Part shown: positions 12,932 through 42,591 of the stretch, piece by piece
How positions within the stretch are numbered: the first letter of the stretch is position 1
How the letters are laid out: every line of letters begins with the position of its first letter
Source of the DNA: Collodictyon triciliatum
Taxonomy: Eukaryota
Assembly: GCA_043381765.1 (NCBI GenBank)
Contig: JBHJMP010000839.1
Location: forward strand, 1 to 52,573
Length of the DNA: 52,573 bases
Direction of reading: 5' to 3'
Notes under the pieces: generated by a model
Database searches by the model: none
Told to the model about the DNA's origin: nothing
The model's input: the letters and a program-made list of their open reading frames with translations, nothing else
Position numbers and translations under genes: made by a program

Positions 12932-14079
12932 ACCGATACGGTATGGCCGAACAAAAGAAAGGGTGGATTCGTCGGCGGGTAAAGTTTGTTCTGCAGAGTG
13001 TGCTGTTGGTCGAATGGATACGTCTATTCCGTCGGGAGTCTCACCAAGCGTGTTGTACTCTGTTTCAAAAAAAAAAAAAAAGAACAGAAAAGAAGAAGGA
13101 AAAGAGGAAAGAAAGAAAAAAAAAAAGGGCAAGGAGCGATCAGAAACCTTTCTGGGTTCACTCGTCTAGTTTCACAAAGTGAGGCGATCGATGTTGCTGC
13201 GAACAAACCTTTTTGCATAAACAGCCACGCCTTGCACCAAACTGCTGATATAAGAGGACAGACCGTCGAGAAATCCTGTGCAATAATCAGGCCGTGGCGC
13301 TTTCAGTTATAAAAAAAAAAAAAGCCCGAATAATACCAAAGGAAGCGAAACTTGAAAGAGAGTTTTGTGGAAAAGAATCTCCGCGCACAAACTTGCGGAC
13401 TTGTTCGCTACTTCCGCTTTGTCTTGCTGAACAATAGTTTGCGCACAGACAACTTTTCTTAATGCGGGACAAGTCTCACTGATAGGAAACTGGCTTTGCG
13501 GAGCTGTGTGCCGCAAAACAGAAGCAGGCAAGCGCATCAATGGCCAACTTCATATGTCTTTTCTGGCGCGCTTGTCTTCCTTTTCGCTTTGTGATGACCG
13601 CGGTTGATTGAAAGCTCACCGAATTTCCATAGAGGAAGTCAGGATACGGAAACCGTTGAAGCAAAAAGATATATCAATTAATACATACCTGTATCATTTT
13701 TCCTTTATTCTATTCTAATAATACATACCTGTATCATAATATATATTTTAAAAGATAAAATGCTAGCATTTAGCATAATAGAGTATTATGATTATATTTT
13801 CCATATATGTAAATATCAACGCAATCGATAACAACTGTTGGAAATATATTTTGATTGCTGCTGTTTTTTTTTTGGTGAAGGCGAGGGATGAGAAGAAGAA
13901 AAAAGGGCAGAGGATTTTTATTTTACCACGGTGCGGATGGTCCTTGTTTCAGCAGAAGCATCTTCACATAATTTCCAACGATTATATGAATCAAAGGGAT
14001 ACCAAACGACTTGGGCAAGCGAAAGGAGGTTGGGCTGTTGTGCCGGCCGGGGCGTAATAATTGATAGTGCGTGCTTGTT

Positions 14080-15770
<1,691 letters not shown>

Positions 15771-17642: not shown

Positions 17643-18221
17643 NNNNNNNNNNNNNNNNNNNNNNNNNNNNNNNNNNNNNNNNNNNNNNNNNNNNNNNNNN
17701 NNNNNNNNNNNNNNNNNNNNNNNNNNNNNNNNNNNNNNNNNNNNNNNNNNNNNNNNNNNNNNNNNNNNNNNNNNNNNNNNNNNNNNNNNNNNNNNNNNNN
17801 NNNNNNNNNNNNNNNNNNNNNNNNNNNNNNNNNNNNNNNNNNNNNNNNNNNNNNNNNNNNNNNNNNNNNNNNNNNNNNNNNNNNNNNNNNNNNNNNNNNN
17901 NNNNNNNNNNNNNNNNNNNNNNNNNNNNNNNNNNNNNNNNNNNNNNNNNNNNNNNNNNNNNNNNNNNNNNNNNNNNNNNNNNNNNNNNNNNNNNNNNNNN
18001 NNNNNNNNNNNNNNNNNNNNNNNNNNNNNNNNNNNNNNNNNNNNNNNNNNNNNNNNNNNNNNNNNNNNNNNNNNNNNNNNNNNNNNNNNNNNNNNNNNNN
18101 NNNNNNNNNNNNNNNNNNNNNNNNNNNNNNNNNNNNNNNNNNNNNNNNNNNNNNNNNNNNNNNNNNNNNNNNNNNNNNNNNNNNNNNNNNNNNNNNNNNN
18201 NNNNNNNNNNNNNNNNNNNNN
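17643..18221. other. Assembly gap
   Basis: Run of N. Confidence 1.
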
Positions 18222-19003
18222 TAGGACTCACGTGTCATGGGTGTTAGCTGCCTGCAGTCTCCCGGCTCAGGGAGTCTGTTAATGGGTTCGTTTGGGGTAG
18301 GGTATGGGTATGATGGTCGGTTTACCCTACTACAACAAACACTTTATCTACACCCACCACTTACTTTGGAGACAGAGACGTATTTGAGTTAGCACAGATG
18401 GCTCTCCCCTCGTTCAAGTCGGATGAAACAAGACAGAATCTACACATCAACGGGAGTAAAATATATATATAGGTTACTGAACACAACCACACTCAAGTTT
18501 TCTTTTTGAAGAGGCCAACCGAGAGCAGCCGGGTGTTTTCCGCCCCGCACCCAACCAGGCAATCCCTCTGAAATAATTAATATCCACAAGAGGGCATTGA
18601 TTGAGAATATCTGTGCATCTGCACAAAAAAGGAATGTGCTGTGCAAGTTTTCCAATGGGCGAAACACAAAGCCCACGCCGAATGGCCACCTTGCGAGTCC
18701 GCGCCTCCCAGTCACTCTCTCCTACAACATTGACATGTCCTACCACAGCCCGAAAGAGAGTCAGTCACGATGCCTGTGATAACAAAGACCGGCACATACC
18801 AAACGCCGCACAGATATGCGCGTCCACATACATGCATGGATGCCGCCCTCAAGACACCGGCGGATTCATACGCCAGATATACACCCAGCAGCGCCAATGC
18901 CGGGGCGAAACACAGGCAGCCATTCTGACAGAGACCCAAACGCAGGGCCATAGGCAGCAGGCAAGCAACCGACCAGCCGGCCGGCGAGAGACTTGGGCCC
19001 CGA

Positions 19004-22000
19004 ATGGAGGAAAGGACGGCAGCAGACGAGAGCGACCAGGCGAAGCAGACGGCTTCCATCGACATTCCGCGCACGCAGCCGTCCGCCTCGCAGCCCTCGT
19101 CCGATCCTTCCACACCGCCCAGTCAGATCAGACACTCGTTTTCAGCCCGCCGCTCTTTCGGCCCACGCGGTGTGCTCGACCGCTTGCCTCTCCCTTCGGC
19201 GCCTTTCGTTGCCTCGGCCTTCTCTCCGCATTCCTTGCACACAGCCCTGCCCGCTCTGCGAGAGCCGCCCCCTGTTTCTCACGGGATGGTCGAGTCTGTC
19301 TTTCGCCCGCCACATGCGACCATATTTCCAGATAATCACACGGTCTATGACTACTGGCATGCGGGTGTGTGCACCGAATAGACGATTGATGATTGATTGA
19401 TGATTGATTGATGATTGATTGATGATTGACTGATGATTGATTGATGATTGATTGATGATTGATTGATGATTGATTGATGATTGACTGATGATTGATTGAT
19501 GGTTGATGATTGATGACTGATGATTGATGACTGATGATTGATGACTGATGATTGATTGTTAATTGATTGTTAATTGATTGTTAATTGATTGTTAATTGAT
19601 TGTTAATTGGTGATTGGTGATTGATAATTGATAATTGATAATTGTTAATTGATTGTTAATTGATTGTTAATTGATTGTTAATTGATTGTTAATTGATTGT
19701 TAATTGATTGTTAATTGATTGTTAATTGATTGTTAATTGATGATTGATGATTGATGATTGATTGATTATGTTTCGACTTCCACAATGTGAAAAGTGAACT
19801 TAAAGAAAAAACTGCCCAGTTTAATGATTGACTGGTTGATTGAATAGTCATGCCAACGCCAACCGAGCTCCAGAGTCAAAGTGAATCCAGCACGCCTCGT
19901 CCGGCTGCCCTATCGCCGATGTCGACTGTCACGGCTTCTGTCATGAGGACCGCGTCTCCTTTAGCAAGCACAGAGTTGGATTTGGATGCGCATCTTCGGC
20001 CGCTTATGAACACTATTTCTCGATCCTCATCGCATCTTAGCCTGACTCTACAAGTCTCCACACCCCCAGTATACTCACCCTTTTCAGACGTGCTGTCTGT
20101 GGGTTCGCCCCTCACTCCTCCTAGTCGCTTTCAACGCATGAATATTGGTGACTCGGACGAAGAAGCCTCCGATAATTCAGGCGCAGATGAGGGCAGTGAT
20201 GAAAGTGTCCTAGGAGATCAAAATAGTACTGCTCACTACTCTGATACACTATTTTTATCACAGCCAGTGATGCACACGCCAGAAAGGTCATGTATGCATC
20301 TTTGTAACACGATGCATTCTCATGTGGACATGAAACGCATCCCTTACTATCATCTCACAACAACTTTCCGTGAATGTGGCCATCTACAAAAATATCGATG
20401 CTACACATTGCCTCAGATTCATCGGGCTTATTTGAAGAAGAAAATGCACTTGGTCAATATGCCTCGACCTGAGGAGCATGGAATCAATAAAGTGTTTGCG
20501 TCTGCATGGATTTCGCCCCGTTGCGTACTGTTTGGTTCTAAAAATAATCAGGTGACATACTTCATATAACACACATATTTTTTTTTATAAAAATAAAAAC
20601 AAAACAAAATAAACACTTTACTGGGAACATAAGTATTAAAATCAAGTGTCTTATTATGCTCTGATGTTTAACAACAGTATGTCTTTGCTTCGACCTGTAG
20701 TTGTATCTTTGGGATACGGTCAAGAGCGATATGATACCAATTCCATTTCCTGAAGGGACTCCAAATCCAAAAGTTCCGTGCTGTGCTGAAAACTTTGGAG
20801 TGCACACAATAAAAAAGAATATTTCTGGGTCGTTCCTTGTAACGGGTGGAAATCGACCAAATGATGTTGTTCTATACAGTCTCCCAGAGCTGAATCCCAT
20901 TCGCATATTTGAGGTAAAGTCTTAAAGATGTCTCAAATATTGCTTCAGTATACTTTTTGTCCATATAAAGAAAAGAGCCGTAATTTCATATGAATAAAAT
21001 AAAATTCGTATAGCAAATACCACTCTAACGGTATTGTTCGTCTCAATTATTTTCCCTTCGAAATAACAGGGTCACACCGATTGGCTCTTTGATTCTGGTT
21101 GGATAAATGATGAAGTTTTCATCACAGGTTCTTTATATTAATCGTTTTGTAAAGTTGTCAATCTGATTTGGTATTTCCGTTTGTGATGTATTCTAAAACC
21201 AAATTTACACAATAGGGTCACGAGACCATTGTGTGAAACTCTGGAATATAAACAACCCCTTCGCAATCGAAACAGATTGCCTCCAATCGCGAGTGCGCGC
21301 TGTGATGTATAGCCAGACTAGTCAGGTATCACTCTCCATTCCAGAATAGTCACCATGACTTGGAAACAAATCTTATCACTAATTTCCTTCCTCCTTTTCA
21401 TCCAAAGCGGGGTGTCTTTGTGACAATATCAGGAAAAGTACATACATACGATTGCACTGCATGGAAAAAGGTGTCTAACAGACGACTGCAACCATTTAAT
21501 AATATTTTTGAATTTTTTTATGAACTCATGGAAAATTATCCCTTTGCTCTTTCATACAGTGCGTAAATGTTGTCTCAATAAAAATAGTAAACGCCAAGCT
21601 AATTGATTTATCATCTTTTATTTATTTTATTGCCGAAGATTTCTGTGGTGAACATTAATGAACCAGAGATGACATGCATCAGCGACTCAGACTCTCATGG
21701 TCTCGTTTTGATTGGATCAAAAGAGCGCCTCATAGCATTCGACCCTCGCAGTGGTCATGTATCACAGACGAAGACTGTCACCTCACAGACGTCCTGTTAG
21801 TTTTCGCTTTTGTTTCATTTGATTAAGCTTACCATTTTAAAATTTATCATACAAGAACATACACAAAATAGTGCAGCATACCTTTCATTCATATCCCGCA
21901 TATTCCATATCTAATCACTGTCACATGGAGATCACGTAACGAGCGTCAAACCACCTTGTCCATCCAGGTATTCGCTCTGTCTCTGTTCACGATGATATAG

Positions 22001-22514
22001 TTACAATGGGGGCAATAGGCGGGATGATGTTTTATGACATGCGAGCTGATGCGTTTCTACCTATGCTTTCTTCATTATCTTCCCAAAAGAGTACATTCTT
22101 ACCTGTGGACGCAGAGCAGGTTGACCAATCACTCTACCATTCTCTCACTATCACTCTATCACTCTATCACTATCATCCTATCATTCTGTCATTCTATAAC
22201 TGAACCTGGTCGCGGATGCATCATAACATAACCCCTTAAATCCCATCATCTCTTCCAAATGCATCACAACCCAGGCAAATCTCCCCGTCCGCCACCGAGT
22301 CTATAATTCTTATCTCTACGAAGCGGTCTGCACACACGCTTACGACCCAAGCGGGACGACGCTTTTCGTTGGAGGGGGACCCATTCAGGTGATTCCACGG
22401 ACGTTGGAATGGCCGCGTCCGATGCAAATCCAAAAAATCAAGACATTCTGCTCACCCCAAACTCCTGTCTTTTAGGTGGAATCAACTGGCGCGTTCGGCC
22501 TGATTTTGCGATGA
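19004..22514 (+). CDS. DCAF12: DCAF12/WDR40-like WD40 protein (CUL4-DDB1 substrate receptor family) with long N-terminal extension
   Basis: INKVFASAW...FGSKNNQ|LYLWD...FGVHTI...LVTGGNRPND...YSLPELNP...|GHTDWLFDSGWI...TG|SRD...FDPR...IRSVS...MFYDMRA...AVCTHAYDPSGTTLFVGGGPIQ|VESTGAFGLILR* parallels recalled DCAF12 motifs (LNKVFASQW, TGGDNPN, GHKDWIF, YTHCYDSSGTKLFVAGGP). Exon 1 (ATG 19004 to 19364) splices in frame across intron 19365-19847 to the ORF at 19850; 19850 is the alternative start. Confidence 0.88.
19383..19765 (+). repeat. Compound GATT/GAT/GTTAATT-based microsatellite in the first intron of the DCAF12-like gene
   Basis: Blocks of (GATGATTGATT)n, (GATGACTGATGATT)n and (GATTGTTAATT)n. 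Confidence 0.95.
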
Positions 22515-22930: not shown

Positions 22931-25900
22931 TTATTTGGGTGATTGTTCTGGGTCGATGATAAAGTATGTGTTCATCTTGTGTCCGGCAATCTCCATTTCT
23001 CCACGCGCCTCAAACTTATATGATGACTCTAACCGCACTTTCAGTTGCTCAGAAATGTGGATTCTCTCTGCGAACCGAATCATTACAGAAAGTAAAGTTT
23101 TTTTTTTCAAAGAGAAGATTAATATAAAAAAAATATTATTTTACCGAGATTGTGAAGAGGTATCATGATTAGGAAAAGATATTGTGCATCTCGTTTAGAC
23201 ATAATAGCCGGGGACTGGCATATCCATATATATGTATGAGTTTATATGATTCAAACTCACCAGGCATCCCCTTTGACTCCATCGAATTGGCAATAATCAC
23301 GTCACCACCCCAGATGTCATAACGATAGACCTTCTTTCCGATAACCCCTGGACAAACAAACGTTATTATTCGTATTTCAGAAAACAAATCGACATCCAAA
23401 CCGACAAATACAGTGTAATGAAAAGAACACTAAGCATTTGAGGCCAGTATGGAACAAGTCGATTCAACTGCCCCAAACCTGCAAGAATCTTGCCGTAGTG
23501 AATCCCAACACGAATTCGAACAGATTGACCATCAGAGCCAGGGACGTCTCTCAACTGTGGTTTGTGGAGTGAGCAAACCTCTTATATGATTATAAGTGTA
23601 TGATATTCGCAGTCTATGGGCTTTGTGGCTTACAGCCTTGGACATGTCCAGAGCAAACGCTGCTATCCGCTCTGCCGATGTTTTCCCTCCGACCTCCATT
23701 GTAGTGTTGCTCGTGGTGGGCACTCCAGCAACGACGACATATGCGTCTCCGATTCTGCAAAGTAGCAAGAGTATGAATATAAATACAAGAATAAGAAGAA
23801 AAAAATTGCTGATTTAATTCAAGAGCTCCTTTTTTTTTTCTTCCATCTATAGGATTTGTTAGATTTGTAAAATTATGATACATCGCCCACAGAGGGAATT
23901 CATATGCCAGTATCATTACGTTTGAACTTTGTAGACGCCATGCTTTTCTGTAAGTGCGTCAAACTTTTTAAACATAATCGACAGCATTTCAACCACCTGG
24001 TCATCATCAAATGAGTTGGTTCGTTTGAGTAGTTTACAAAAAATTCCTTTCAGAGTTATGCAAAAAAAAAAAGAATTATTGATATATGTTCAATGAAAAG
24101 GTAAAAGTGAATCAAGTTGTAATAGTTAGTAATGGGCCCAACCTTATCAGGAGAAGTTTTGGATGCCTTGTCTGTGAATCCAACAATATCGGAAAAAAGA
24201 ATAGCAACATCTTCGTGGAAGCTCGCAATTGTGTGTCGACCAGCCTTGGTTGAGTGCGTTTGGTACAGTGTATCGTGAGAAATAATGCCACTTATGTTAG
24301 AGTGGGATAACTTTATGCGGAGGATAGCATTTACGTTTAGATAGACAGGTCAGGTATGACCTAGAGTTCGTCGTAAATAAATTTCGGACAAAGAAAATAC
24401 CTTTAACTGGACTATGACGCTTTGGGGGAGCATATTGGAGATGAGATTATCAGACTTTTTTGTTTCTATCTTGAGTGTGCTTGTCAGAACAAAGTTGCGC
24501 CGCATGTAATACTCCTAGAGATCATAGTTGATCGATGTCAATTGTAGAAATATCAGTGAATGTCAAACCATATCGTATTGAAATAAGCCGGTCATTGTAT
24601 GACGAACCATGGGGTATGAGAGTTAGGCTCAATAAATAAATAATAATATTAATTATAATAAACCTTCAGACGTGTAGTTAAAGCATCGATAATTAGTGCG
24701 AGAAGGACGTATATCACCAGAATTTGGTATGTAATTTCGAATGAATCGGACGAATCAACTGACGAGCGCATAATTGCGCCGAGGATGACAAAGGATAGTG
24801 CAATGCCGGAGCAAACGCTCATGGCTGAAAGAAAAGGCATTCCACCAGCGTTGAATATAAGATAGATGGACATAATCACGCTAAGCGATGTGTACAACCC
24901 GAGGTTTTCGCCCTAATCACAATTTCGTCAATAAGGAGTAAGTTGCTGATACATAATACCAAAGATGGAAACCAACAGATAGTTGAAATTGAATTCCAGT
25001 TTGCCTCTTGTTCATTAACTATGTATTATTATTATTTTTTTTAAAAAAAATACTGACCTTCGCGACGCTAATAATACAGAGCAAAAATCCCTCAAAGAAA
25101 TAAAATGCCCCTCCGAATCGTTGGGGATTGTTCTGGAAGCGTTCAGACCTCGTAAAGCGAATGAAGACAGAGCCAAGAACTATTACATTATTGGGGAATG
25201 AAAAGTGAAGGGTTGAGTACTTTTCTTCGGAAATAAATACCAAGAAGTAACCCTGTTAATCAATATAGACAACAAATGCAGAAATATGTTCTCACCAACG
25301 AACATGAATCGAAGGCCAACACCAACAGCAAGTGATTTGGATGATGAACCCCCAATTACCTCAAAGAAACATGAACCAGCATATCTAAGTTACAAACCAA
25401 TGGGCTTAATTTTTCCAAAAAAAAAAAAATTCACGTATTTGCAAATGCGTGTGAGAGCCCTTAAATCATACCCGATGACGAATATGAATGCACACGCACG
25501 GATTTGTTTCGCCACGATTGGCCTAATTTCATCACTAAAAGCATTTTCAAGCTCAGATGAACCCAGAAACTTCATTGACACGGGATGCATGGGAATATCC
25601 TCACGAACTTGCTCATTCTTGCAATATGTATTAGGTTATTTAAAGAGACCGGATGATATACTCACAAAGGGGTTTAAAATTTCATTTATTCAAAAAAATT
25701 CTTTAAAAGAGCCCTAAATATTTATTATCCTTATAATACCTTCGTTTTCTTTGTTGATATGAGCTTAGAGTCCGAATAGACCGATGTGCGCTAGTATGTA
25801 AGTTTATTAAAATAGATAATCAAGCGATGCCATTAGATTCCCAAATTGATTTTGAAAAAATCTTTCAAACTAGCAGGGAAATAATGCAATACACGCTTAC

Positions 25901-28900
25901 CACTGAAGACTTTGAGTTTGTGCGGGAGATGGAATTTGGACCTGCAGCCAAAACAGATTTTCTTTTTCGAAGAATGTATGTGGTTAGTTCGCCTTTTCCC
26001 TTCGCCTTAACAATGCGTGATTCGGCATCGTAGTGGGCTTGTATGTGCTGCCAAGTAGATGATGACACTTGTATTTGAGACACAATGCCTGTGGACTGCA
26101 TACGAGACGCAGTATTCACCTAGCATCGTATTGTAATTCCATGAAACAGATAAGCCAAAAACGCCTCCGGTAATGAACGGACAGCCAAAGTAGTAACATA
26201 TCTTTATTTTCATCTATAATTACCGTGTCTCCAAAAAGGCAGTACTGTGGCTTTTTCTCCCCAACAACACCAGTGAAAACTGGGCCAGTGTTTATACCAA
26301 TTCTGACTCTAGATTATTATGTTGTTGTTTTTTTTTTGTTAGTTCTCTTTAAGTTGAGAATAACAATCCCGATAAATCTGATGTAATGGAAATCGGAAAA
26401 GAAAAAATGTGATAGATAAATGACTTGATAGGCTCTCCTTCATTAGTTTTGAATCTCGATATTTCTTCGATCATATCTTCGGCAAGAAAGGCTGCGGCGA
26501 GTGCGTGTCGCTTATTTGTCCCTTGCAAGCCAGCACATGCCTTAATCATAATTTTGAACAAAAGGTTGTAATATGGGAACATTAGAATGAAAGAAAATAA
26601 CATATATATAATAGCCAACAGCAAATCAGCTTGTATATATGTTCAAATGGTTTCAGGCAATTAAAGCTTAAGAAAGAGGAGAAAATAGAAGAGGCAGCCA
26701 AAAAAAAAAAATAGATGCAAACCATGTATGTCGCACCAACTGTCTCCATTTTTTGCACAGAGTGTTTTGCGCTTAGTTTTTCAAATCTGGAGTAAATTCC
26801 GTCTAGAAGCGTCACAAATTCTTCTGGTTTATGCCTGATAACTAAGTTGGAGAAATCTTGGATATCACAAAACAGCACCGTCACTTCCTCCTACATAGAA
26901 ATCATATGTATTAGTTGTGTATTGAATCTTAATGAGAACACACAAGTGTCATAAATTTTTCCAATAAGAATAATTGCGGGCTTCTCATCGAATTACTCAC
27001 CTCTGCTTCTGCAATTATTCTGATGCCTTCCTTCATCTTCTTTGTAACGTGAGGAGGGAGCATATTTTCGAGAATGGTCTATATGGATTCATTGAGATAT
27101 ATGATTGATGATGTTACTATTTCTTTCTTCTTTTTAAAAATCATAATCATAATGAAAAAAAATTAAATTGCTTATCAAAAATGACCGACCTGAGATTGAT
27201 GACGCTCTTTATTTAGGTCCCTCTGTAGCAAAAAGTCATTGCGAACAGCAATCTCATTGTTATAGGCACCAACAGCGCCGAGACAAAATACAGCCATGAC
27301 GAGGATGGCATTGGGTGCAAAGACGGAGAACCCGAATTTTCTATTAGATTGGTATGAATTATGATGTACTTCGAATACAGTAATTCTTTATTTTCTTAAA
27401 AGCGAGAAACTAGAATCAAACCATATTCATATATGAGGTTCGAATATATCAGATGGGGAAAGAAAATATGTAGACGATACATACGTTACAACGTATGTGA
27501 GGTAGAAGCACATGTCAAATGCAGACACTGGAAAAGCATATTTGAACCGCAGTCTTAAAACAGTGAAAGCAAGGATAGGGAAAAATACAGCCGAAAGAAT
27601 TCCGTTCTCTTGGATGGACATGGTCTGTCAATTCAGAAAAATATTAGTCGGAGAGCTTATCGGTGTTGTAAGGTGCTATAAAACGGCGACTTTAATTTGA
27701 AATGGTTATTCACCTTCGCTATGCTCCCAGCGAAAAGAGGAATCAGAATGGACATTTGATAGGATCTCTCAAAATAAGGAGAAAATGTAAAGGCAACATA
27801 AATCCCTAAAATAAAAAACGGGAAGTGAGGAACAATAAAACGAACAAATAAAGTCCCATTTATCCAACAGGGCGACTGAGATATAAAAATTTTTTAGGAT
27901 AGCTATTCTCACCTCCAAGAATGATGATTGTCGTAGAGAACACCCAAGAAAGTATCTTTAAATTAATGAGAAAGTATATGATATAAAGGAACAACATTGT
28001 GACGAAGCTAAGGCGCGTTTGCTTGGCGGATATGTAGAAGAAATATGCCTATACAAGGATATATAAATCTATGAGAAGTCTGACAAACATTTAGCAAGCG
28101 GCAACCGTCATTACGAATAGTCTTGATTCGCTACGAGTGATAAAATCGAACAATCAAATTTTATGCTTACTGCAAATAGTTTTTCCAAGCGCCTGTCGTT
28201 GGCAAACTCCAAAGTGTATTTGTCCAGGTCGGTGAGAGAACTTATTATGGGATTCTTTTGTGCAGTGCCCTGTAAAATACAAAGAATGAATAATTCATTT
28301 CAAAAAGTATAAAGAGAAAATAAGAAAATATTGAACCCAATCTGAGCCATACAAACCTGATTTCCCACCATGACAGTTCTAGGTTTATTGCTATTATTTT
28401 TGAAAAAAATTATTAAAAGAAGAAAACTCTCAAAGAGTTGAATGCAGCATCGCAATCATTCAAGAAATTCTGCAAAATCACATGGATTTTACAATTTAGA
28501 TTCAACACAAACTTGGCCGTATATTTTTGTTTGTTTCCTTGATTCATAAACGCCAGTTTCGGGAAGGCGGACTGTGGTCGCGAATTTTCGACATCAGCCT
28601 CTTGAACGTCGGAGACAACAACTTTTGATATTGGACTATAGTTTATCAGATTTTTATTATGTTAGTACATTCTTCAATGTCGTGTGTAGCCGATCATGTG
28701 TGTTCAAAGATAAGAATCGATGATAATTAGTGTTGATAGAACGATATAGTATAGCATACCCGCACCCACGTTCCATTTCTTGTACAACATCAATTGGTGA
28801 GGGTCTAAAGAAGCGCTGGAACCTATGAATGCGTATAATGACACAGCGTAAATACACCGAGGGGAGGTATGAATCATGAGAATGTTTATTCAATCATATA

Positions 28901-31900
28901 ACCATGCATTTGTTACGTACGATTTCAGAGTCAGGTCAAAGAGTAAGCAAGCACTCGGGATGAATGGGATGGATGCCCAGAATATTCCTCTGAATGGTAT
29001 TATAACATGTTATAGGTAACACAAGTCATGTGCCATAATATCATATTTGAAATTATTGAATAGCAAACCGTTTGTAAACTTCGATTCCAACGTGGAAATA
29101 ATCAGGACTGATTGTGTACATCAGAGAGTATACGATAATGTAAAAGAACCATAAAAGCACACTGAACAGGAGGATGCCAACATAAGGCTTCGTCCAATAA
29201 TATGTTTCCAAAGCAATCTGTATTTGCAAAAGCATGCATAATTTTGAGGGGGAAATTATGAGTGTCTTAGATAACTGCGCCATTTTTTGATACTTAAACT
29301 GCGCATGTCGATTTGATTAACATACATATGACTGAGATGGTGATATATCATTTCAGAGGAAAATAAATAATTATAATTATTAACATTTGATGGAATCTTC
29401 ACGAAAGGAAACCTTGAAATTAACAGTCAACATGAGACAGCCATTAATCATAGTCCCCATCAAAAACAGGTCATCACTCAACCCTTTACTGGATATGATG
29501 CCCTTCATATTTTTAAAAAAAAATAATCATTTAGCGCCCATGCAATCGTATATAGAAAAAATCACAGTTAATAGAAAGACCTTCGCAATTAAAGTTCATC
29601 AATTGCATAGTTTTTATAGTATAAGAAGGAACTTTTAGCCTTTTACTATGTAGGCATTTATGGAAAAGGAATCATAAATTCAGTTCATACACCATAAATG
29701 TTAATTCCGCAGAAGTAAATGATGAGCGAATGGGCCAAAGCCAAGAAGCACCATTTCACCATGACCCAGAGGTTGAATCCCATCTGTATTGGCAGGTAAG
29801 TTCTTTCAGGGATTCTTGAAGAAAAGTACAGTCACTTCTCTCCAATATTCAAAGAACCCATGATATATAGGAATGTACCTTCGCCTGTCCCCAATAATAA
29901 ATGGAGGGGAACTGCTTGCTACTCTTTGCACTGCAATCATTTGTATAAGTAGGGTGTAGTTAGGTGAGACACTCAGAAGTGATTGTTGGTGAATAAGGAC
30001 AACCTGGAGAAGCGAGATATAGTTATTTGCTAACCTGATATCCTGGTCGAGAACACTCATAAACATAACTGGGAGAAGAGTCCACCCGACATTCCATCCG
30101 GCACCGAGCCAACTTTCGTAAAGCGTTGTGCCCGAGGAGGCATTGAGAAAGGTGAAGTAAAACAGAGTCAAGACAAACGCCATGTTTTTGTAGAACGAGT
30201 AAAGGATCAATTTGCATAGTCGCATGTAATTCCAGTGTCCATGAACCTAAATGAGCGTGCAGAAGAGTTAAATCAAAATACTGACATATATATATATATA
30301 TAAACAGCAGAAATAAAAAAAAAACGGAGACATAGACTCACGAGAAGAAGTCTTTCCAGGAACCGAAATTGGGCTATGGCATAATCACTACTCTGGACTG
30401 CTTGCATTCCTTCATGCCCACTGATGCCTATGTGAGAGAGTTACAATAACGAGGGTTCAATCAGTTGATATTTACAAAATTGCGGACTGTAAAATAGCTG
30501 AGTAGTATATGTAATCGGAAACTGCATCGTAGAAAAATCGTACCAATCCCGACATGGGCCTCTTGAATCATGCTGACATCGTTTGCCCCATCACCTATCG
30601 CAAGAGTAATTGGCTATATGTGAAGGAAAATCAGAACAAAGCTGGGAAGGTTACCTGCTGATGAACATCCACTAAATGCACATAAATATTGAGATATTCG
30701 TCATCGCTTTATGAAGACTGTTGGGTGTAAGATTTTCTTAGACACCTGAGGCTTGATATTATCTTTCACAAGGGTGACCATTTCAGCCTTTTGCTTGGGA
30801 CTATAAATGTTGTTATGCGATTGGAAAAAAGGAATATATATGTCGTGTTTAGGGATAAGGTGAGCGAAGGAGGACAAGGCTGGCCATTTGTGTGCTTATT
30901 TGCATCATACCTGACACGACATGCAACAACAGACGAGCAGAGCCTAGCAACGAGAAGGAAACTAATCTTGTTTTCTTCATCAGACATGATTCTGCTGATT
31001 GAGTTACCATCGACTACCAAGCCCAGATTCTTGTCCTCATTCTGCACATGTATATGATGAAATAATAGGCTCGATGGTATCGTACACACAAATCGTCATT
31101 CTAATTTTATGGTGTCTAATATACCCACGTTGAGAATGTATTCGACTTCCAATTGCCTTTGTTTCAAGATTGTACTTATGTCATCCTCTTCTGTGCAATT
31201 GATGTAAATGAGATGCATCCCAGACTCGAAAAGTCGTGTGGAATACGCGATGTTCACAGCTGTTTCTTGTTTGTCTCCAGTTAGGACCCATATCTTGAGT
31301 CCTAGTAAAGGAGCAGATGGATTGCTCAAACTAGGTGTTGATAATATTTGCTTTATCTTTTCGTAAGGTTACAAACCAGCGGATGAAAGGGTGTGGATTG
31401 TTTCTGGGACTCCATCTTGTAGTTTATCTTCAATAGCTGTGGAGCCAAGTAGTTCCAATTCATGCTCAATTTCATTAGCCACCTGCGTGTTGACCCGATT
31501 GGTATACATAAATATCAGATTGCAGGTTTTTACAATTTAGAAAGACGAAGAGACAATACCTTGTCCATCTGCTCTGAGCGATCTCTTAGTGCAAGACTGG
31601 CCTTGGTATAGCGCTCGTTCCATTCCGAGTATATCTCAGGTGACAAATCTCTCTGGATGAAAAGGATAAAATGAAATCAAAAAGAAACCCCATTTAAATG
31701 AAGGTATGAATTTTTCCATTGAGACATAACATGACGAATACTATATTAAGATGCCAAGCGAACCTTAGTAATAACAAGCGTTCTGAGTCCGTCGACAGCG
31801 AAAAGGTTGATATGGTCTAATGTTGGGTCCCGGTGCTGCTGCTCAGATGCAAGTCTCTCGACAATAACAGAATCAGCTCCCTTGAAATGGAAAAAAAAAA

Positions 31901-34330
31901 GGGTCGACAAAATTTACAGATGATTCTGCTTCAAAAAGAGAGACATGTCAAAAAATGAACATAAAGAAGACGACATGCATAGAAAAAAATATGTGGGTAA
32001 GATAAATACAACCAGATACAGTTCCTAGATGCAAACGATAAAGAAAGAGTAGATTTGTGAGAGTAACCAACCTTGCAGAATAACTGAACTCGGCCGTCTT
32101 CTCTCTTTACAACAACAGACATTCTTTTTCTGTCGCTGTTAAATTCGTTCACATTAAGGATTTTGAAAACCTCCAGCTTTCCTCGAATACTAACAGTGAC
32201 TTCAAAAAAAAAAAAAAGATTTGTGAGCAAAATATAAAATTAAAAAAAAATCACATATAATAATTGGAAGAAAAAAGCACATGCAAGATCGCTTCGGTAT
32301 TTACATTTTTTAAACAAAAAGATTCGATCTATCCAAGTAATACCTGAGGTTTGAGTTCTTTCGGTAAGGACGAACCCTAATTCCTTCGCAGCTCTACAAA
32401 GAAGAAATAATTATTGGATGTCATAGAAGTGATCAAAGGGTTTAGTAAATCTGAAATATGCTTAAGGTTGTGTCAATTTCTATCGGACATATTTTTTCAT
32501 CCCTTATCGTGATAGTTTTTCATCTTGGAGGGGAAGAGGGATGGGAATCTGTATCTTACTGGACTAAAGCAATTTCGTCCGGACTTTGTGATTGATAAAT
32601 TATATCGCCATCATCTTCAGACATACGCAATGCCTTCCTATCTTCCTCGGAAATTCTTTCTGGGATGGCTGTGTGACAGACAGCTAGAACCTAATAGGGA
32701 ATAGTTCGGCGATTCAGAAGAATAATCACTATGGGATTCATATTGGCTCATTTGCATAATACAATTTTGTGACCAATAAATGCTAACACACAGTCATAAA
32801 ATCGTCTAGATGCTTCTCTGGAATGCTACAGGCTTCAGATATGTTAATATCTGATGCTGCTGTCTTGATATTTGCTGTACTTGTTTCGATGTCTTCAATT
32901 TCGATTGAGTTTCGATTCTCAGACGATGCAATCGATATACTGCTGCGATTTAGTGGTTTGTCTTGATTTGTCTGGTAATTAATATAAACACTTTGAATCA
33001 GTCTGGTTTTATATTTATATTATGTTTATCAGTATAAATATTATTATCCAAAAAAAAAAAAAGAGAAATAAGTAATATGAACTATTTAAGTATCTTTGAA
33101 AAAATGCCTTTGGTGCCTCTTTGTAAAAGAATAGTCTCCCATAGATTGACGCCCTTCGAAATTCCATTTCATTACAAGTGAGTGTTCCGGTCTTATCCGA
33201 AAAAATGTACTGAATCTGACCCAGTTCCTCATTGAGATTGGATGTGCGTGCAAGTGCTGTAGTATTTGTCTTTTCATAGTACATCTCCTTGTCAAATTCG
33301 ATGAGCTTGGCCTGATATAGCCTAAATGGTTACATCAATATTGGCTTTAACAACTGATGAATTTGAGATGCGTAGATGTAATAGCTTTTAATAATCTAGA
33401 GTAAATTACTGGATATTTTCGAAAATTATGATACCAGTATTTACCTGACAACTTCCATGGATATGTAAAGCGAGATTGGGGTAAGGTTGTTAAACAGAAT
33501 TAGAAATGTAATGAATGATAGATTCGCTGCAAATCCTTCTTCATCGGTCAGGAAGTCCAAGTACCAAACGCCATCACTATGTGATGAATACGTAATTAGC
33601 TTTACTTCATGAAAGTATGCAAATGTAAGCAAACTNNNNNNNNNNNNNNNNNNNNNNNNNNNNNNNNNNNNNNNNNNNNNNNNNNNNNNNNNNNNNNNNN
33701 NNNNNNNNNNNNNNNNNNNNNNNNNNNNNNNNNNNNNNNNNNNNNNNNNNNNNNNNNNNNNNNNNNNNNNNNNNNNNNNNNNNNNNNNNNNNNNNNNNNN
33801 NNNNNNNNNNNNNNNNNNNNNNNNNNNNNNNNNNNNNNNNNNNNNNNNNNNNNNNNNNNNNNNNNNNNNNNNNNNNNNNNNNNNNNNNNNNNNNNNNNNN
33901 NNNNNNNNNNNNNNNNNNNNNNNNNNNNNNNNNNNNNNNNNNNNNNNNNNNNNNNNNNNNNNNNNNNNNNNNNNNNNNNNNNNNNNNNNNNNNNNNNNNN
34001 NNNNNNNNNNNNNNNNNNNNNNNNNNNNNNNNNNNNNNNNNNNNNNNNNNNNNNNNNNNNNNNNNNNNNNNNNNNNNNNNNNNNNNNNNNNNNNNNNNNN
34101 NNNNNNNNNNNNNNNNNNNNNNNNNNNNNNNNNNNNNNNNNNNNNNNNNNNNNNNNNNNNNNNNNNNNNNNNNNNNNNNNNNNNNNNNNNNNNNNNNNNN
34201 NNGGAGCAGCTCGAGAGTTCATGGAAAGCTTTGTGTCATGTCCGGTGAAAAGCACGAGTCCAAAAATTTGAGACGTATTTCTAAGTATCATTCCTCTCAA
34301 CAGGATGTTCTTAATGTCAACAGAAGCTAC

Positions 34331-34426
<96 letters not shown>

Positions 34427-36067
34427 TTAGTTTTTACAAGAACATCAAGTTTTGGAAAATATCTCAACAATTATCCAGGATAGGAAAAAATAAGTAGAGG
34501 ATATATCAATAGATAGTGTATGTGAAATAAAATATATGTATCCATGAGACTTGCCCTCATCATTGCCTTCTACAGTTATTGATCCGTTGAAGCGATAGAT
34601 GAGATTGTTGGGTAGCTCATAGTTCATGGTTCCTTTCATCTCCATCAAAACTCCCGGGTTGTTGAAATGCTGTGTATTCGCTAGTGACTGAAGGGCTTTC
34701 AGATTCGTTTCACTATAAAAATTGGAGGAATAAATTTAAATAGGGCCCATAGAAGTATCCATATGGGTGTATTGAAATCTTCGCACTCATACCGCTAATT
34801 TTGACAGGAATAAATACTGCCGTGTTCATGGATTCTTATTATAATTATTTTGCTATTTTGCCTGTCTTACCCATCAAGGTTGGATGTTTCCACAAAGCAG
34901 ATTCCCCCATCTTCAGAGGTGCTAAGAATCATCAAATCTGCTGGGGATTCTTCCCTGTTCTTAACACAACATATATCCCCAACTATCACATCCCTCCATA
35001 GAGCTTGTTCTAGCTTTCCGTCACGAACAATGGAACATGTTCTGTTGTTCATTTCAAAATCAGATTGATGGCGTTTCTAAGAAATACTCACGTTAGTCAC
35101 TAAGTAGACATACAATAGATTCATAATTCTTTTTTCCCTTCATTCGATTCAAGTGAAAGGGGGGGGGGGGGTTTTACTCATAATTCTTAATTAGAAATAT
35201 GCATAATTTCAATGTTGTCAAAAAAAATCAAAAATAGGTTAGAGAAAGAAAAATCGAGCCCACTAACCCAGTCTTCATAAGCTTCTTTCACCATATTAGC
35301 AAAGAGAACTACTGCAAGGGGTCCAGCCGTAGCAAATTTATTGGTGGGCGATAAGTCAGTGCTCAACTAGATAATGAAAGTACACAATTAAATAAATTGG
35401 CACGCTCCACAAACGAGTCAATGAACTGATATATTGAAGAGAATAGTAGTATGGGATATTGTGATATGTATGTGGCTCGCACATGTTCATTTATGTATAA
35501 TTATCCATCTAGCACTTAATACCTGGAGAAGTGAAATAATGAGGAAGTATATATTTGATACTCTTCGAAACTGTTCAAATAGATTTTTCGGAAGGAATGA
35601 CGCGAAGTTGTATTTTGCCGTGGTGATTACGTTGTTCTTGTACCTGTACATATACGGTCAGAAAGAGTGATAAGTTGCTCACGCAATCCAGCCAAAAAAA
35701 TGATATTTTACACGCAATCAATCAATTTTATATGTCTTCCAATTATATGATATCATTCTGTAAGATTTCACTACCCATATTGCAAGTTCCCAACCGGGTC
35801 GTTCATCTTCACGATACGATGATCCATCACCTATGAACATGTGAAAAGATCGACCCCAAAACACACGAGTGTTAGCGGATATGAGGAACTCCAACGTCAA
35901 AAAAAGAAAAACGAAGCTGTCGCATACGAGGCGCTTCGTTTTACTGAATTTTTTTGTATATAGTTTAAGATGTGTGAATAAGTGGGCAACAAGACTGATG
36001 TGAGACGTCTAAGTACTGGTGGACTCACCGGTTTTCGAGAACCAACCACTGATCGAAGAGCTTCCAT
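22931..36067 (-). CDS. P4-ATPase (phospholipid flippase) - membrane guanylyl cyclase fusion protein, at least 52 exons
   Basis: Continuous in-frame splicing apart from one gap. Flippase half: [153 protein letters not shown]. Then a hydrophobic block, C1 ([33 protein letters not shown]), a second hydrophobic block and C2 ([24 protein letters not shown]). Probable ATG 36067, TAA 22931. Confidence 0.93.
33636..34202. other. Assembly gap inside the P4-ATPase region (hides about M3 and part of the exoplasmic loop)
   Basis: Run of N between 'MNSRAAP' and 'DGVWYLDF'. Confidence 0.95.
34333..34423 (+). repeat. About 90-nt poly(A), read as poly(U) just upstream of a 3' splice site on the coding strand
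   Basis: Homopolymer with one T at 34381; the acceptor AG is at 34327-34328 on the minus strand. Confidence 0.95.
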
Positions 36068-38095: not shown

Positions 38096-39362
38096 ATGGC
38101 AGTGGACACAAATGGGTACATCGTCCCTCGTAAGTCCCATACTTTTTTTTTTTTAAAAAAAAAAAACAAAACACGCAGAAGCTTCTATATGATGATTTTT
38201 TTTGTTGGGAATAATAAGCCTTACTGACACTGAATTTGTGTACTCACTGCGCACACCAACAGCACAAAAGAGCAGACCTGATGCGTTCGCAAGCAATGGG
38301 CGCAGCCATTTCTCAAACAGACGCAGCTACATAAGTCGTCTCAAATCGACTATGCACATATTCTCGCGTATCCTATCAGGTTCGACACTAGACAAACTCT
38401 CGGAACTTCGTCTAATGAGCAAATTGCTTGAGAGACTTGGAGCCAAAGTTTCCATCGTCCAGTCGCAACCAAGATCTGTATCCACCGTGCCTCATACTTT
38501 TTTGCAGGTATGTGAGGTCACCGATTGGCAAATTTGCATCCGTGCAAATGACATTTTTTCTTGATACCTCAATATGATGAAGCGGTTTCACCAAAATAAT
38601 GCCTTTACTTTCTTGCTCATCACATATGTTGTATCCGAAGAAAACTCTCGATGAAATATGGTTTCTATTTAACTAACAAAACAAAAGAGATAAAATGAAA
38701 ATATGACCTCTGATTTTTTTTTCCGTTTACCTAGCTGTCTGCCCCAAGTTGGTGTGGAGGAGCCCCTATCATTATCGACCCTGAGTTCCGCGCAATGCTC
38801 CGTATACCCCGTCCATCACAATTGTACCATCAGCTACTTGAGATAGTTCCTGCCATATTTGTCGGTGATTGGAAAGAATGTGCATCCATATTGCGCGACA
38901 TCATCCCAGAGATTGATGATTCCTTCACAGTAACATTTTCATATTCTCTCGAGAACAAAAGGCAACCGCGATAGAGTCCGCGGCTAGCTTAAACGCATAT
39001 GAATTGTTTTCCTGATACAAAATACTTGAAATGAAATCTATGTTTAATTATGAATATAGCAAGCTGGAATGCCTACACCACCATGGAGAACTCTCTCTGG
39101 ACTGTCTGCATACTGGGAATCACCAATCCCTTTGATCGGGTACGCATACTTATTTATTATTTTATTTTAAAAAAATTGTAAAACACACGCACGAACAAGA
39201 GATAACGTTGAATTACGGGTGGTGCCACAGGCAATCAAGTTTTAACGCCAAATCAAATGAAGTACATGAGAGACTTACGCATAATCATATTGTGATATCC
39301 TCACGATTCTTTTTCATCTAAACGGTAGTACAAGGCCTCCAGAACACCACATAAGCCCATAA
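38096..39362 (+). CDS. DUF506 / PDDEXK_6-like protein
   Basis: Spliced ...LMSKLLERLGAKVSI...HTFLQ|LSAP...IIIDPEFRAMLRIPRPSQLYHQLLEIVPAIFVG...DSFT|QAGMPTPPWRTLSGLSAYW matches the recalled DUF506 pattern (H.YIDV, IVDxDFRxxFxIARP..Y..LPxxFVG, GMxxPPWR, terminal W). Start may be upstream at ATG 37537; the last exon (39329-39362) is tentative. Confidence 0.8.
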
Positions 39363-39832: not shown

Positions 39833-42591
39833 ATGGAAGGTCGCTGGGAAGGAAGAGAAGGAAGAGACAATAGAGACAGCAGAGACAGCAGAGATAGCAG
39901 AGATAGCAGAGGCAACAGAGAAGGAAGAGAAAGCAGAGAAAGCAGAGAAAGCAGAGAAAGCAGAGAAAGCAGAGAAAGCAGAGAAAGCAGAGAAAGCAGA
40001 GAAAGCAGAGAAAGCAGAGAAAGCAGAGACAACAGAGACAACAGAGACAACAGAGACAACAGAGACAACAGAGACAACAGAGACAACAGCCGCGTGAGGC
40101 CATCGAATGGTCACGGAGGTTTCGGAATGATGTTCTCAAGCCAGCGGCTGAATAGCAGCGTCCCAAAGTTAACGACGATTGAAAGGAGCGATGTTGGAGA
40201 AGGAATAGGCGCAGGCACGTACAGGTTTTTGGATTTATTTCATTCTTTTCTTGTTGTTTATTTTCTCTAACTTAACCATGATGAGGGAGTTGGTAAGAGG
40301 ATCAAAGAATGTATTCACATGAAAGAGATTTCACTATCGGTGTATTTAAGGGAAAGTCACAGCGGACACTGATTCTAAGCCTTTGTATTGAATGAATTGA
40401 ATCGTAATGAAAGAGAAGAATTACTTTAGGCTGATGTAATATAACGTCTCTCTTCTTTTTTTTTTTGGGAAACATTTGCTTCATTTTTAAGACTAAATCA
40501 TCATTTTTCGATTACATAGCCATGTGTTCAGGTGCAAGACAGAGCGTTTTCATGGAGATGTCGTAATGAAAAAGATAGAAATAGCGACAGATAAGAACGG
40601 GGTATAAATAATTTGATGATTTCATTAATTGCATTCACTACGCGAAAGTGAGTTACAAGAGTTCTGATATTAATGGGCCAATTGAATCGAATGAATGAAA
40701 AATACTCAATTTTCAGCCAAATATTTATTGATAAACAGAAAAGTCACTTGACTACACAACAATTTGAAAATAAAACAAAGAAAAAGTGAAACAGTTCATT
40801 TAAGTATATATCATGAACATTATATACTCAATTAAATATTATGAAAGGTGTTTCCATGGGCTCTCAGAGAAGTATCCGTTTTGTCTCGGCTAAAACATCC
40901 AAATATTATCCGCCTTGTAGATGTAGCCAATGCTGGTGACGAAAAAGGTAATTTATCTGTAGATGAGTCGTCTAAAATTTATGTCTGATGGGAAACATAT
41001 TATAAGCTTATTAGTGTTAATGAGAGATGTATTGTCCAAATGATAATTTTGTATACATGCTTACTGCAGCTATGTCATTCCATCGAAAGATAGAATAGTT
41101 AATCGATATTTCAATTCATGATTCCCTGAACTTAAAGACCCAAAGAAGATATGGCTGGTATTTGAATCGATGGACTACAATCTTGGTGATCTCATTACTG
41201 AGTCGTCCTTTACAAAATTCGACCATATAAAATGCATAACGAAGCAAATATTGGAGGGCATAGAGTATTGCCATTCACAAGGATTCATGCACAGGGATAT
41301 TAAACGTAATTTCTCAATGTGTTCGATTACTCATTGTTTGTGCTTAAATGTCATACCTCTGTAGCTTGCACCTAATTTGAGCTAATCAAGCACATTTATT
41401 TGCTTTTCTCCACATGCTCAAACTCATCGACCAAAGCTGCAAATATTTTAATGAACACTTATGGGAATGTGAAGATTTCTGATTTTGGACTGGCCTGCTC
41501 TGTAAACGAATTCAAGCAGGAGCACACAACCATGGTTGTCACCCGATGGTACAGAGCACCCGAATTAGTCTTAGGAATAAGGAAATATAGTGTCGGAATC
41601 GATATATGGTCCATAGGGTGATTTTAATTCATCATTTTATTATTTTCTGTCAATTTTTGTGGCATGCAAAATTTTCTGAATGATTTTCACAAACATGAAT
41701 ATTATCCAGTTATTTGAATCGCCTGGTCAGTATACCAAGTTGAGTTTTAATTTTACACGGACGCAGATGTGTCATGGCTGAGATGATTATGAAAGCACCT
41801 CTCTTCAAAGGGGTTAGCGACGCTGATCAATTGGGTGTTATTCTGAAGGTCTGTGGCCTACCCGAAGACACCTTTAAAATTTCTGCGGCTGGGCCGTCAA
41901 GTATTTTTACTCAAGATAGAAAATCAAGAGTTCAGGAATCCATCCAAAGAGAGTAAAGTTCAATTTAAATACCGACAACAACAAAAAAAAATTATTTTTT
42001 TTATTGAAGATATCAGACATTCTGAATTTTGACTTTCTCATATACTTACACCTTTTTAATACAGTCCATTAAAGGATTCATATACATGCAAAGAAGTTTA
42101 TTAACTGCACAGTATTTCATCTTGTAGATCAAAGATCGATGACGGTCAATCTCCTGATTATGAATTATTGGACGGACTTCTTCAGATTGATCCGTCAGCT
42201 CGTATAACAGCGAGGCAAGCACTACAGCACCCAGCACTCGCTGCAATATCTCAAGAGACTATGGAATACATCAAGAGATGGTATTTATTCATCAATCCTT
42301 TTACATGGTCTGTGAAAGTGGTGAAGTATCCAGGGCAGCATACTTTTTATGCCCATAATGATAACAACGACGCGCACGTTTAGTCTTCCTACATGCTCCA
42401 TGTCACCAGAGTATGTCTCCCGAAGATTCGAAAGACAGAGCGAGTTGGCCCTTAAAGGTCAGGAAGGTCGTCAGGCAGTTGCTCATGGACCAAGTGGAAC
42501 ACAGGTGAGCCAGAGAAATGCAGGAATCCCAGCATCCCAGCGGCAAAGCCTACCAAAAGAAGAATCCAAACCGAAACGATTTTGTTCATAA
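39833..42591 (+). CDS. Divergent CDK-family Ser/Thr kinase (paralog A) with N-terminal R-E/D-S/N repeats
   Basis: 8 exons: IGAGTYS|HVF...VVMKK...NG|VFPWALRE...LKHPNII...|...LVFESMD...MHRDIK|PANIL...SDFGLAC...[18 protein letters not shown]...DIWSIG|CVMAE...LLQIDPSARITARQALQHP; TAA ends at 42591. Confidence 0.9.
39926..40087 (+). repeat. Coding 9-nt tandem repeats (AGAGAAAGC)11(AGAGACAAC)7 encoding (RES)11(RDN)7
   Basis: Perfect arrays in frame between ATG 39833 and the kinase Gly-loop, preceded by degenerate REG/RDN/RDS units. Confidence 0.95.

Follow-up and report, generated by a model that had tools for sequence, protein, structure and literature searches.

In this study, we analysed a 52,573-nucleotide stretch of DNA (contig JBHJMP010000839.1), referred to below as the window, and describe in it a gene predicted to encode a P4-type phospholipid flippase fused to a guanylyl cyclase (P4-ATPase/guanylyl cyclase, P4GC). 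We modelled the gene on the minus strand with an unannotated transcript of Diphylleia rotans as guide. This transcript, TRINITY_DN698 (EukProt EP00002_P033012; P0010, 2057 aa), is an ortholog that is collinear over its full length and has the same motifs and the same domain order. An earlier reading of the letters alone, made without database searches (the sequence-only reading), had placed such a gene at 22931-36067, and the splice model has the same ends, with an ATG at 36067 and a TAA at 22933-22931. The parts of the gene are as follows:

22931..36067, minus strand: whole P4GC gene, ATG to TAA (splice model guided by D. rotans P0010)
28760..36067, minus strand: P4A-ATPase (flippase) module, exons 1-27 (Pfam PhoLip_ATPase_N and PhoLip_ATPase_C on exons, motif scan)
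33636..34202, no strand: run of N in the flippase part (region of transmembrane segments TM3/4), hiding about 20-40 aa and at least one intron
28635-28513 and 28378-28357, minus strand: two linker exons leading in frame from the flippase C-terminus into the cyclase (direct reading, frame check)
27190..28269, minus strand: first membrane block of the cyclase module (hydrophobic peaks at aa 1206-1338 in a strict hydropathy scan; collinear with P0010)
25871..27078, minus strand: first cyclase catalytic domain, of the C2 type of transmembrane adenylyl cyclases (tmAC) (Pfam Guanylate_cyc, hidden Markov model (HMM) typing, residue table)
24401..25617, minus strand: second membrane block (six hydrophobic peaks at aa 1637-1793)
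22931..24244, minus strand: second cyclase catalytic domain, tmAC-C1 type, ending at the TAA at 22933-22931 (Pfam, AC5 alignment, HMM typing)

Open reading frames (ORFs) taken from stop to stop on the minus strand held flippase pieces from about 35650 to about 29000 and cyclase pieces from about 27400 to 22940. We scanned 11 single-exon ORFs against Pfam, and a family was assigned to 9 of them (E<=0.01). The exon matches included PhoLip_ATPase_N (1.8e-20), PhoLip_ATPase_C (8.1e-28), E1-E2_ATPase under Pfam's cut-off (1.2e-05) and Guanylate_cyc on six exons in two sets, four above the cut-off and two below. A search with one cyclase exon returned an 1851-aa protein that was 90% identical and carried both flippase and cyclase Pfam domains, and its cluster included the 2057-aa isoform P0010 that became the guide protein. 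An ungapped tblastn search with P0010 yielded 48 anchors in collinear order, running from 35648 down to 22949. Every frame-keeping GT/GC...AG combination was tried between the members of all 47 neighbouring anchor pairs, and the joined peptide was scored against P0010. The results showed one clear GT/GC-AG intron in 42 of the 47 pairs and no intron in one; the remaining pairs comprised two lower-confidence junctions, one junction across the N-run, and one, at the linker, that needed two extra small exons. The linker exons, the start exon (ATG at 36067, donor GTGAGT) and the second exon (35830-35775) were placed by direct reading of the sequence.

The resulting model predicted a protein of about 2035-2060 aa from 51 exon pieces. 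The 49 resolved introns (47 GT-AG and 2 GC-AG) were 75-253 nt long, with a median of 124 nt, and the GC content was 0.432 in exons versus 0.314 in introns. With standard stops, the reading frame was free of stops for 267 codons, then crossed the N-run, and was free of stops for a further 1743 codons. The high intron density described in the sequence-only reading was borne out by these introns, while its count of at least 52 exons was a near miss: 51 pieces were counted, although more may hide in the N-run at 33636-34202. TAA and TAG acted as stops, as had been claimed, and TGA also behaved as one. The window contains four N-runs (2306-2791, 17643-18221, 33636-34202 and 43494-43693), of which the third interrupts the flippase coding region. 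A 91-nt homopolymer at 34333-34423, which reads as A on the plus strand and as T along the gene, lies within the GC-AG intron 34554-34327.

We then examined the junction between the two halves. The sequence-only reading had claimed an in-frame fusion of flippase and cyclase with no stop, and this held across 28822-28171, where the last flippase exon (28822-28760) was joined through the linker exons 28635-28513 and 28378-28357 to the cyclase exon starting at 28269. The N-run at 33636-34202 lies inside the flippase, away from this junction. The linker introns measured 124, 134 and 87 nt, with sizes like those of the other introns of the gene; at only 87-134 nt, they therefore leave no room for a promoter. 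Against P0010, the window P4GC was 76.6% identical (1535/2005; flippase 76.2%, linker 49.3%, cyclase 79.4%), the same linker was present in the ortholog, and one linker exon held a stretch conserved with D. rotans (PKLAF...KY). The ORF of the P0010 transcript combined PhoLip_ATPase_N, PhoLip_ATPase_C and two Guanylate_cyc stretches in one protein (Pfam). D. rotans expresses at least six P4GC paralogues, and 6/6 matched P0010 over both halves in a single ORF, DN8025 being partial. The five full-length paralogues were about 2030-2070 aa long, and the five paralogues besides P0010 were 38-53% identical to it. In addition, of the words sampled from 26000-31000, two RNA-like sequencing runs contained 0.30 and 0.27, and the gene model predicts 0.337 for a fully spliced mRNA; this concerns word content and is a hint only. 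Freshwater metagenome runs had small shares of these words and were left out of account.

To characterize the flippase half, we scanned it for motifs and found the following:

34875-34706, minus strand, split by an intron: DGET (motif scan, aa 173)
33479-33468, minus strand: PISL, in TM4 (motif scan, aa 345)
33197-33183, minus strand: DKTGT (motif scan, aa 398)
32074-31872, minus strand, split: KGAD (motif scan)
31281-31270, minus strand: TGDK (motif scan, aa 703)
30595-30578, minus strand: GDGAND (motif scan, aa 822)

All six motifs were canonical, each occurred once, and their order was correct. When the ortholog P0010 was compared with PDB, the best matches were ATP8A1 (6k7g, 2e-264) and Drs2p, aligned end to end; both align to the flippase half but are separate proteins. 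The bit scores were 884 for ATP8A1 and 876 for Drs2p, versus 421 for Neo1 and 405 for ATP9A. The ortholog is thus far nearer to ATP8A1 and Drs2p, and on this sequence comparison the flippase half is of the P4A type (ATP8A/Drs2 class), not of the Neo1/ATP9 class (P4B). P4A-type pumps use a CDC50 subunit, so the predicted pump is of the kind that does so. Ordinary flippases of about 1200 aa shared 45-51% identity with the window flippase module. In our comparison set, none of these flippase motifs was present in the P4GCs of Stentor, Tetrahymena and Babesia. This agrees with the motif substitutions in P4GCs given in Table 2 of the accessible text of PMC13466520.

Residues of the two catalytic domains were then assigned in the cyclase half:

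26746-26744 and 26241-26239, minus strand: purine-choice residues of domain 1, E and C (residue table)
26116-26114 and 26104-26102, minus strand: transition-state pair of domain 1, N and R (residue table)
26734-26732, minus strand: Ala in place of the second metal Asp of domain 1 (residue table)
24190-24188 and 23747-23745, minus strand: both metal-binding Asp of domain 2 (residue table)

Pfam placed Guanylate_cyc envelopes at aa 1386-1580 and aa 1842-2034 of the window P4GC, each after a hydrophobic block, as expected from the class III module of alternating membrane blocks and cyclase domains that the sequence-only reading had described. The number of helices in the first block is finer than a crude hydropathy scan resolves. 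Domain 1 of the ortholog aligned with residues 1058-1254 of AC5 (C2) and domain 2 with residues 422-621 (C1), and HMM typing showed the domain order A-B in all P4GCs versus B-A in four tmACs. This inversion was originally reported for the enzymes of ciliates and Plasmodium. AC5 (5.8e-55), AC8 and AC9 align to the cyclase half but are separate proteins with the opposite order of domain types and with the K/D (ATP) residues. At the positions equivalent to mammalian Lys938 and Asp1018, the window P4GC has Glu and Cys, and the four tmAC outgroups have Lys and Asp; the numbering and meaning of these residues, the Asn/Arg pair and the metal Asp follow the adenylyl cyclase literature. As read from its residues, the signature is that of a single-site, pseudo-heterodimeric guanylyl cyclase. 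In the ESM Atlas, the homologue P0002 fell only into generic cyclase clusters (0.79, below the level of a lead). Taken as sequence, the window gene is a real, intact and single P4GC gene, with a predicted canonical flippase and a predicted guanylyl-type cyclase.

To place the host, we compared a further gene of the window with D. rotans:

9066-12970, minus strand: UDP-sugar pyrophosphorylase gene (PF01704), at least 15 exons (collinear with D. rotans P0133)

This gene, 10 kb from the P4GC, was 76.3% identical to D. rotans over 611 aa and 15 exons, and the corresponding value for Rigifila was 58%. One pyrophosphorylase exon matched D. rotans at 82% and a D. rotans paralogue at 70%; the other 118 matches listed were at or below 63%. 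A taxonomy look-up placed D. rotans (EukProt EP00002), a predator living in freshwater, in the Collodictyonidae, within CRuMs (collodictyonids, rigifilids and mantamonads). Because two genes each stood at about 76% amino-acid identity to D. rotans and everything outside D. rotans at or below 63% (pyrophosphorylase exon), the host, as far as these genes tell, is most likely a collodictyonid distinct from D. rotans and outside SAR (stramenopiles, alveolates and Rhizaria). DN698 accordingly differs from the window gene in coming from another species or genus, with about 24% protein divergence in two genes, and in being a transcriptome ORF, whereas the window shows genomic structure. The window P4GC was sister to DN698 within the D. 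rotans paralogue family (SH support 0.989 in the cyclase tree and 1.0 in the P4 tree, described below), and the window organism and D. rotans therefore share a duplication history. Judged by this branching, the P4GC family has at least six paralogues, which arose before the window organism split from D. rotans.

For the wider relationships, we used the cyclase half of P0010 as query against targets of 1131-3600 aa. The search returned 219 proteins at E<=1e-10. Among the best 120 of them, the top matches after the D. rotans paralogues were almost all fused proteins, from metagenomes, Stentor, Blepharisma, Tetrahymena, Vitrella, Babesia, dinoflagellates and Diacronema lutheri. A cyclase tree was built from the concatenated catalytic domains of 55 sequences, with Shimodaira-Hasegawa (SH)-like support from FastTree and the SH approximate likelihood ratio test (aLRT) from IQ-TREE -fast; P0192 was left out because it consisted of three domain pieces. 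The results showed all 48 P4GC tips in one clade (SH 0.96, aLRT 99.5). A clade of 35 tips containing the alveolates (0.997; 98.5) excluded the Diphylleia family, which was itself monophyletic with 8 tips including the window P4GC (1.0; 98.2).

For the P4 tree, flippase homologues were drawn from 1.84 billion representatives and 60 ordinary-length flippases were added (n=107), while P0002, DN8025 and P0167 were left out for low coverage. Fifty-one ordinary flippases split off (aLRT 98). A clade of 55 tips held 54/55 P4GC modules (aLRT 95.4), and one of 56 tips, with Diacronema, held 55/55 (aLRT 45.5). The alveolate modules formed a long-branched clade (aLRT 100) that excluded Diphylleia, and the Diphylleia modules (99.7) joined the metagenome P4GCs P0145 and P0146 (aLRT 100). 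In the separate phylogenies that the sequence-only reading had proposed, both halves thus grouped with other P4GCs and outside the alveolate clade. Together with the two genes at about 76% amino-acid identity to D. rotans, a member of CRuMs, this upholds its view that the host is not among the known P4GC hosts. On the evidence of both half-trees, the fusion has one origin that is shared with the SAR proteins and is not nested within alveolates.

Several sequences encountered in these searches deserve mention on their own. P0163, P0177 and P0194 (metagenome, 1369-1481 aa) are two-domain cyclases with the inverted A-B order and no flippase Pfam domain. They branched as sister to all P4GCs (SH 0.966, aLRT 94) and may be unfused cyclase relatives or truncated predictions. 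P0186, an NCBI protein labelled Hylaeus volcanicus 'guanylate cyclase alpha-like' (1758 aa), has cyclase domains of the P4GC A-B type, clustered in the cyclase tree with the proteins of Babesia and Vitrella, and may stem from an apicomplexan in the bee sample.

We next compared the window P4GC with known members of the class. Alveolate P4GCs, which include the guanylyl cyclases of Paramecium and Tetrahymena, Plasmodium GCalpha and GCbeta, and Toxoplasma GC, were represented in our set by Stentor, Blepharisma, Tetrahymena, Vitrella, Babesia, Symbiodinium and Polarella. They have the same sequence of P4 module, membrane block, cyclase, membrane block and cyclase, the same inverted order, and Glu at the Lys938-equivalent position. 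The window P4GC differs from them in its canonical flippase motifs, which are lost in the ciliate and Babesia examples, and in its Cys at the second purine position, where alveolates have Ser or Ala. The long inserts of apicomplexan enzymes are missing from it, in keeping with the sequence-only reading, and its number of introns, about 50, also sets it apart from the alveolate P4GCs. The size of about 2000 aa given there was also close to the predicted 2035-2060 aa, but the special compactness attached to it did not stand, because the P4GCs of the heterotrich ciliates Stentor and Blepharisma are equally short (1953-2141 aa). The haptophyte Diacronema lutheri has a P4GC from outside SAR (KFE25_001123, P0150, 3120 aa) with PhoLip_ATPase_N and PhoLip_ATPase_C, two cyclase domains, DKTGT and the E/C pair. 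It differs in being about 1000 aa longer and in having DGES for DGET, and its placement relative to the Diphylleia family was weakly supported. The metagenome P4GCs P0145, P0146 and P0002 stand near the Diphylleia family and may or may not be stramenopile. For stramenopile P4GCs (oomycetes and bicosoecids), PMC13466520 reports good conservation of the flippase module and the architecture also seen in the window P4GC.

The domain layout suggests how such a protein could work. The two catalytic domains would form one pseudo-heterodimeric active site that converts GTP to cyclic GMP (cGMP). The pump half would run an aspartyl-phosphate cycle with a CDC50-type subunit while binding phospholipid, and its conformational cycle, or the local lipid asymmetry, may act through the linker and first membrane block to control the cyclase dimer. 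cGMP would then be produced on the cytosolic face, and in a biflagellate predator flagellar or feeding responses would be likely outputs. Gating of the cyclase by the flippase has been argued for apicomplexan guanylyl cyclases, and in Plasmodium GCalpha the activity of the P4-ATPase domain is reportedly essential for cGMP synthesis (title of PMC7858053).

Taking the evidence together, we consider it probable, and hold with good confidence, that the window carries a single nuclear P4GC chimera gene in the genome of a collodictyonid related to D. rotans. A number of points weigh against this reading. For the window organism, a single mRNA is what the splice model and the ortholog predict; two splice junctions, near 33107/32971 and 25870/25617, fall in variable loops and are uncertain, and the N-run hides part of the flippase. 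Cyclase activity, its substrate, dependence on CDC50 and coupling to the flippase are what we infer from the sequence. The host assignment consists of two genes matched to one transcriptome, which could include transcripts of a co-cultured eukaryote, and an Rfam scan of the window at the gathering threshold gave no match, so that the window offers no rRNA marker. As for the trees, the order of the Diphylleia family, the haptophyte and metagenome sequences and the alveolates was weakly supported (0.59; 51.3), nine proteins with the length of unfused flippases, perhaps truncated predictions, fell within the P4GC flippase clade, and the sampling covered no named oomycete or bicosoecid P4GC.

If the locus instead held two adjacent genes, a flippase mRNA would end near 28760 and a cyclase mRNA would start near 28270, homology-guided modelling would have produced the in-frame join as an artefact, and Trinity would have assembled the D. 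rotans contig as a read-through chimera. The join is indeed a prediction from the splice model and the ortholog, and the linker, at 49.3% identity, is the least conserved part. However, two GT-AG-bordered linker exons keep the frame, one of them with the stretch conserved in D. rotans, and the gaps between them are 87-134 nt, as in the other introns. Moreover, all six D. rotans paralogue transcripts cover both halves in one ORF, and the halves follow one another in this order within the single predicted proteins of dozens of homologues, which range from ciliates to a haptophyte. We regard two separate genes as very improbable. A role as a regulatory pseudo-enzyme or lipid sensor has been proposed for degenerate ciliate and some apicomplexan P4GCs, and the flippase half could likewise lack transport, or the cyclase could make cAMP. 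DKTGT or DGET is in fact lost in many P4GCs (Stentor, Tetrahymena, Babesia; Table 2 in the accessible text of PMC13466520). Here, however, the six motifs are canonical in a module that is 45-51% identical to ordinary flippases, and the pair at the purine-selecting positions, E/C, is that of guanylyl cyclases, with K/D in the four tmAC outgroups, which leaves a non-transporting flippase or a cAMP-forming cyclase unlikely. A contaminant origin, in which the window and the matching 'D. rotans' transcripts come from another eukaryote (prey or contaminant, possibly SAR), would void the extension to a new lineage. EukProt labels of Trinity contigs are the only source of the organism name, the window is without rRNA (Rfam), and predatory protists are, as a general point, grown with food organisms. 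On the other side, the two genes stand at the same distance of about 76% from the D. rotans transcriptome, and the values at or below 63% for pyrophosphorylase matches other than D. rotans (120 listed) point to a poorly sampled lineage, unlike the usual algal prey. That transcriptome expresses six paralogues with many isoforms, both P4GC halves fall outside the alveolate-containing clade, and the gene has about 50 introns of 75-253 nt; so many short introns are unlike ciliates or oomycetes. We therefore judge contamination to be slightly less likely again than a degenerate flippase or cAMP product, and retain a collodictyonid gene as the preferred reading.

How the fusion came to be in this lineage is a separate question. 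The P4GC was called alveolate-specific in the accessible text of PMC6592433. In its accessible text, PMC13466520 (2026), a survey based on NCBI nr and selected genomes, reports P4GC in all alveolates, oomycetes and three bicosoecids with no evidence in other phyla, and dates the fusion after the divergence of Rhizaria. The same text, supplementary tables apart, does not contain Diphylleia, CRuMs, Collodictyon, Diacronema or haptophyt*, and in our literature searches we found nothing placing P4GC in CRuMs, in haptophytes or beyond alveolates and stramenopiles. The extension to another lineage put forward in the sequence-only reading therefore stands in so far as it adds a new and apparently unreported supergroup, CRuMs, and needs correction in that the D. 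rotans and haptophyte P4GCs were already public, though unannotated. The architecture itself is known; the six-member family in CRuMs and the occurrence in a haptophyte appear to be unreported. A multi-gene family in CRuMs and one P4GC in a haptophyte break the published distribution and therefore imply that the fusion either is much older or has been transferred between supergroups.

Under the older-origin scenario, the fusion would have been present in the ancestor of CRuMs, which lie on the side of Amorphea, and Diaphoretickes (SAR plus Haptista), near the last eukaryotic common ancestor, and would then have been lost many times, with collodictyonids keeping a near-ancestral form with an active flippase and an E/C cyclase. 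We offer this only tentatively, as a doubtful proposal. Ancient horizontal transfer into a collodictyonid from a SAR or haptophyte donor, for example prey, followed by duplication, competes with this evolutionary reading only and not with the identity of the gene, and we put it at somewhat below an even chance. Collodictyonids eat other eukaryotes, and the Diphylleia flippase modules join the apparently intron-free metagenome P4GCs P0145 and P0146 (aLRT 100). The distribution is also patchy, covering alveolates, oomycetes and bicosoecids (accessible text of PMC13466520), a haptophyte and Diphylleia. Transfer is countered by the finding that the family is nested in no named donor group, and the deep branching order is weakly supported. 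The gene further has about 50 host-like introns, and its at least six paralogues predate the split from D. rotans, so any transfer would be old. In trees that sample neither a named oomycete nor a named bicosoecid, the family may yet have a stramenopile affinity, and either ancient inheritance or ancient transfer may account for it.

These results bear on a protein class of wide interest. In malaria and Toxoplasma parasites, P4GC acts as master switch of the cGMP signalling that governs egress, invasion and motility, and how the flippase controls the cyclase is unsolved. Collodictyonid P4GCs are short, have no low-complexity inserts and keep all flippase and cyclase catalytic residues, which makes them attractive for expression, structure and coupling tests of a kind that is hard with the parasite proteins. 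We consider the window P4GC of moderate to high interest, both for the origin of the cGMP signalling module and as a tractable model protein.

The other features of the window were as follows:

21940-22200, plus strand: DCAF12-type beta-propeller exon (weak Pfam match, E 2.4e-04, below the cut-off)
38735-38971, plus strand: PDDEXK_6 (PF04720) exon (Pfam E 8.2e-07)
40845-41618 and 44339-45570, plus strand: two tandem protein kinase genes (61% identical over one exon)
14083-16130 (minus strand), 18601-19332, 19844-20566 and 45669-46389 (plus strand): long open frames of up to 244 aa, with no Pfam match at E<=0.001

The DCAF12-like and PDDEXK_6 neighbours fix the limits of the P4GC gene. PDDEXK_6 is, we presume, the former DUF506, and on that equivalence the DUF506 neighbour named in the sequence-only reading was recovered as the exon at 38735-38971 (plus strand, E 8.2e-07). 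For the two kinase genes, the Pfam scan covered 137 ORFs (75 aa or longer, both strands) outside the P4GC and 50 plus-strand ORFs of 38-122 aa at 37-47.5 kb, and in these window ORFs no cNMP (cyclic nucleotide)-binding domain was found beside the kinases. We therefore do not take the tandem kinases for PKG, and the search for PKG suggested earlier, here confined to the window neighbourhood, gave no sign of it. By an 11-letter protein motif (letters not shown), we take both kinases to be CMGC/CDK-like. The long frames lacking a Pfam match are probably exons of lineage-specific genes. The DCAF12-like gene is convergent with the 3' end of the P4GC gene, and the PDDEXK_6 gene is divergent from its start; these last two genes may share the upstream region at 36.1-37.9 kb.

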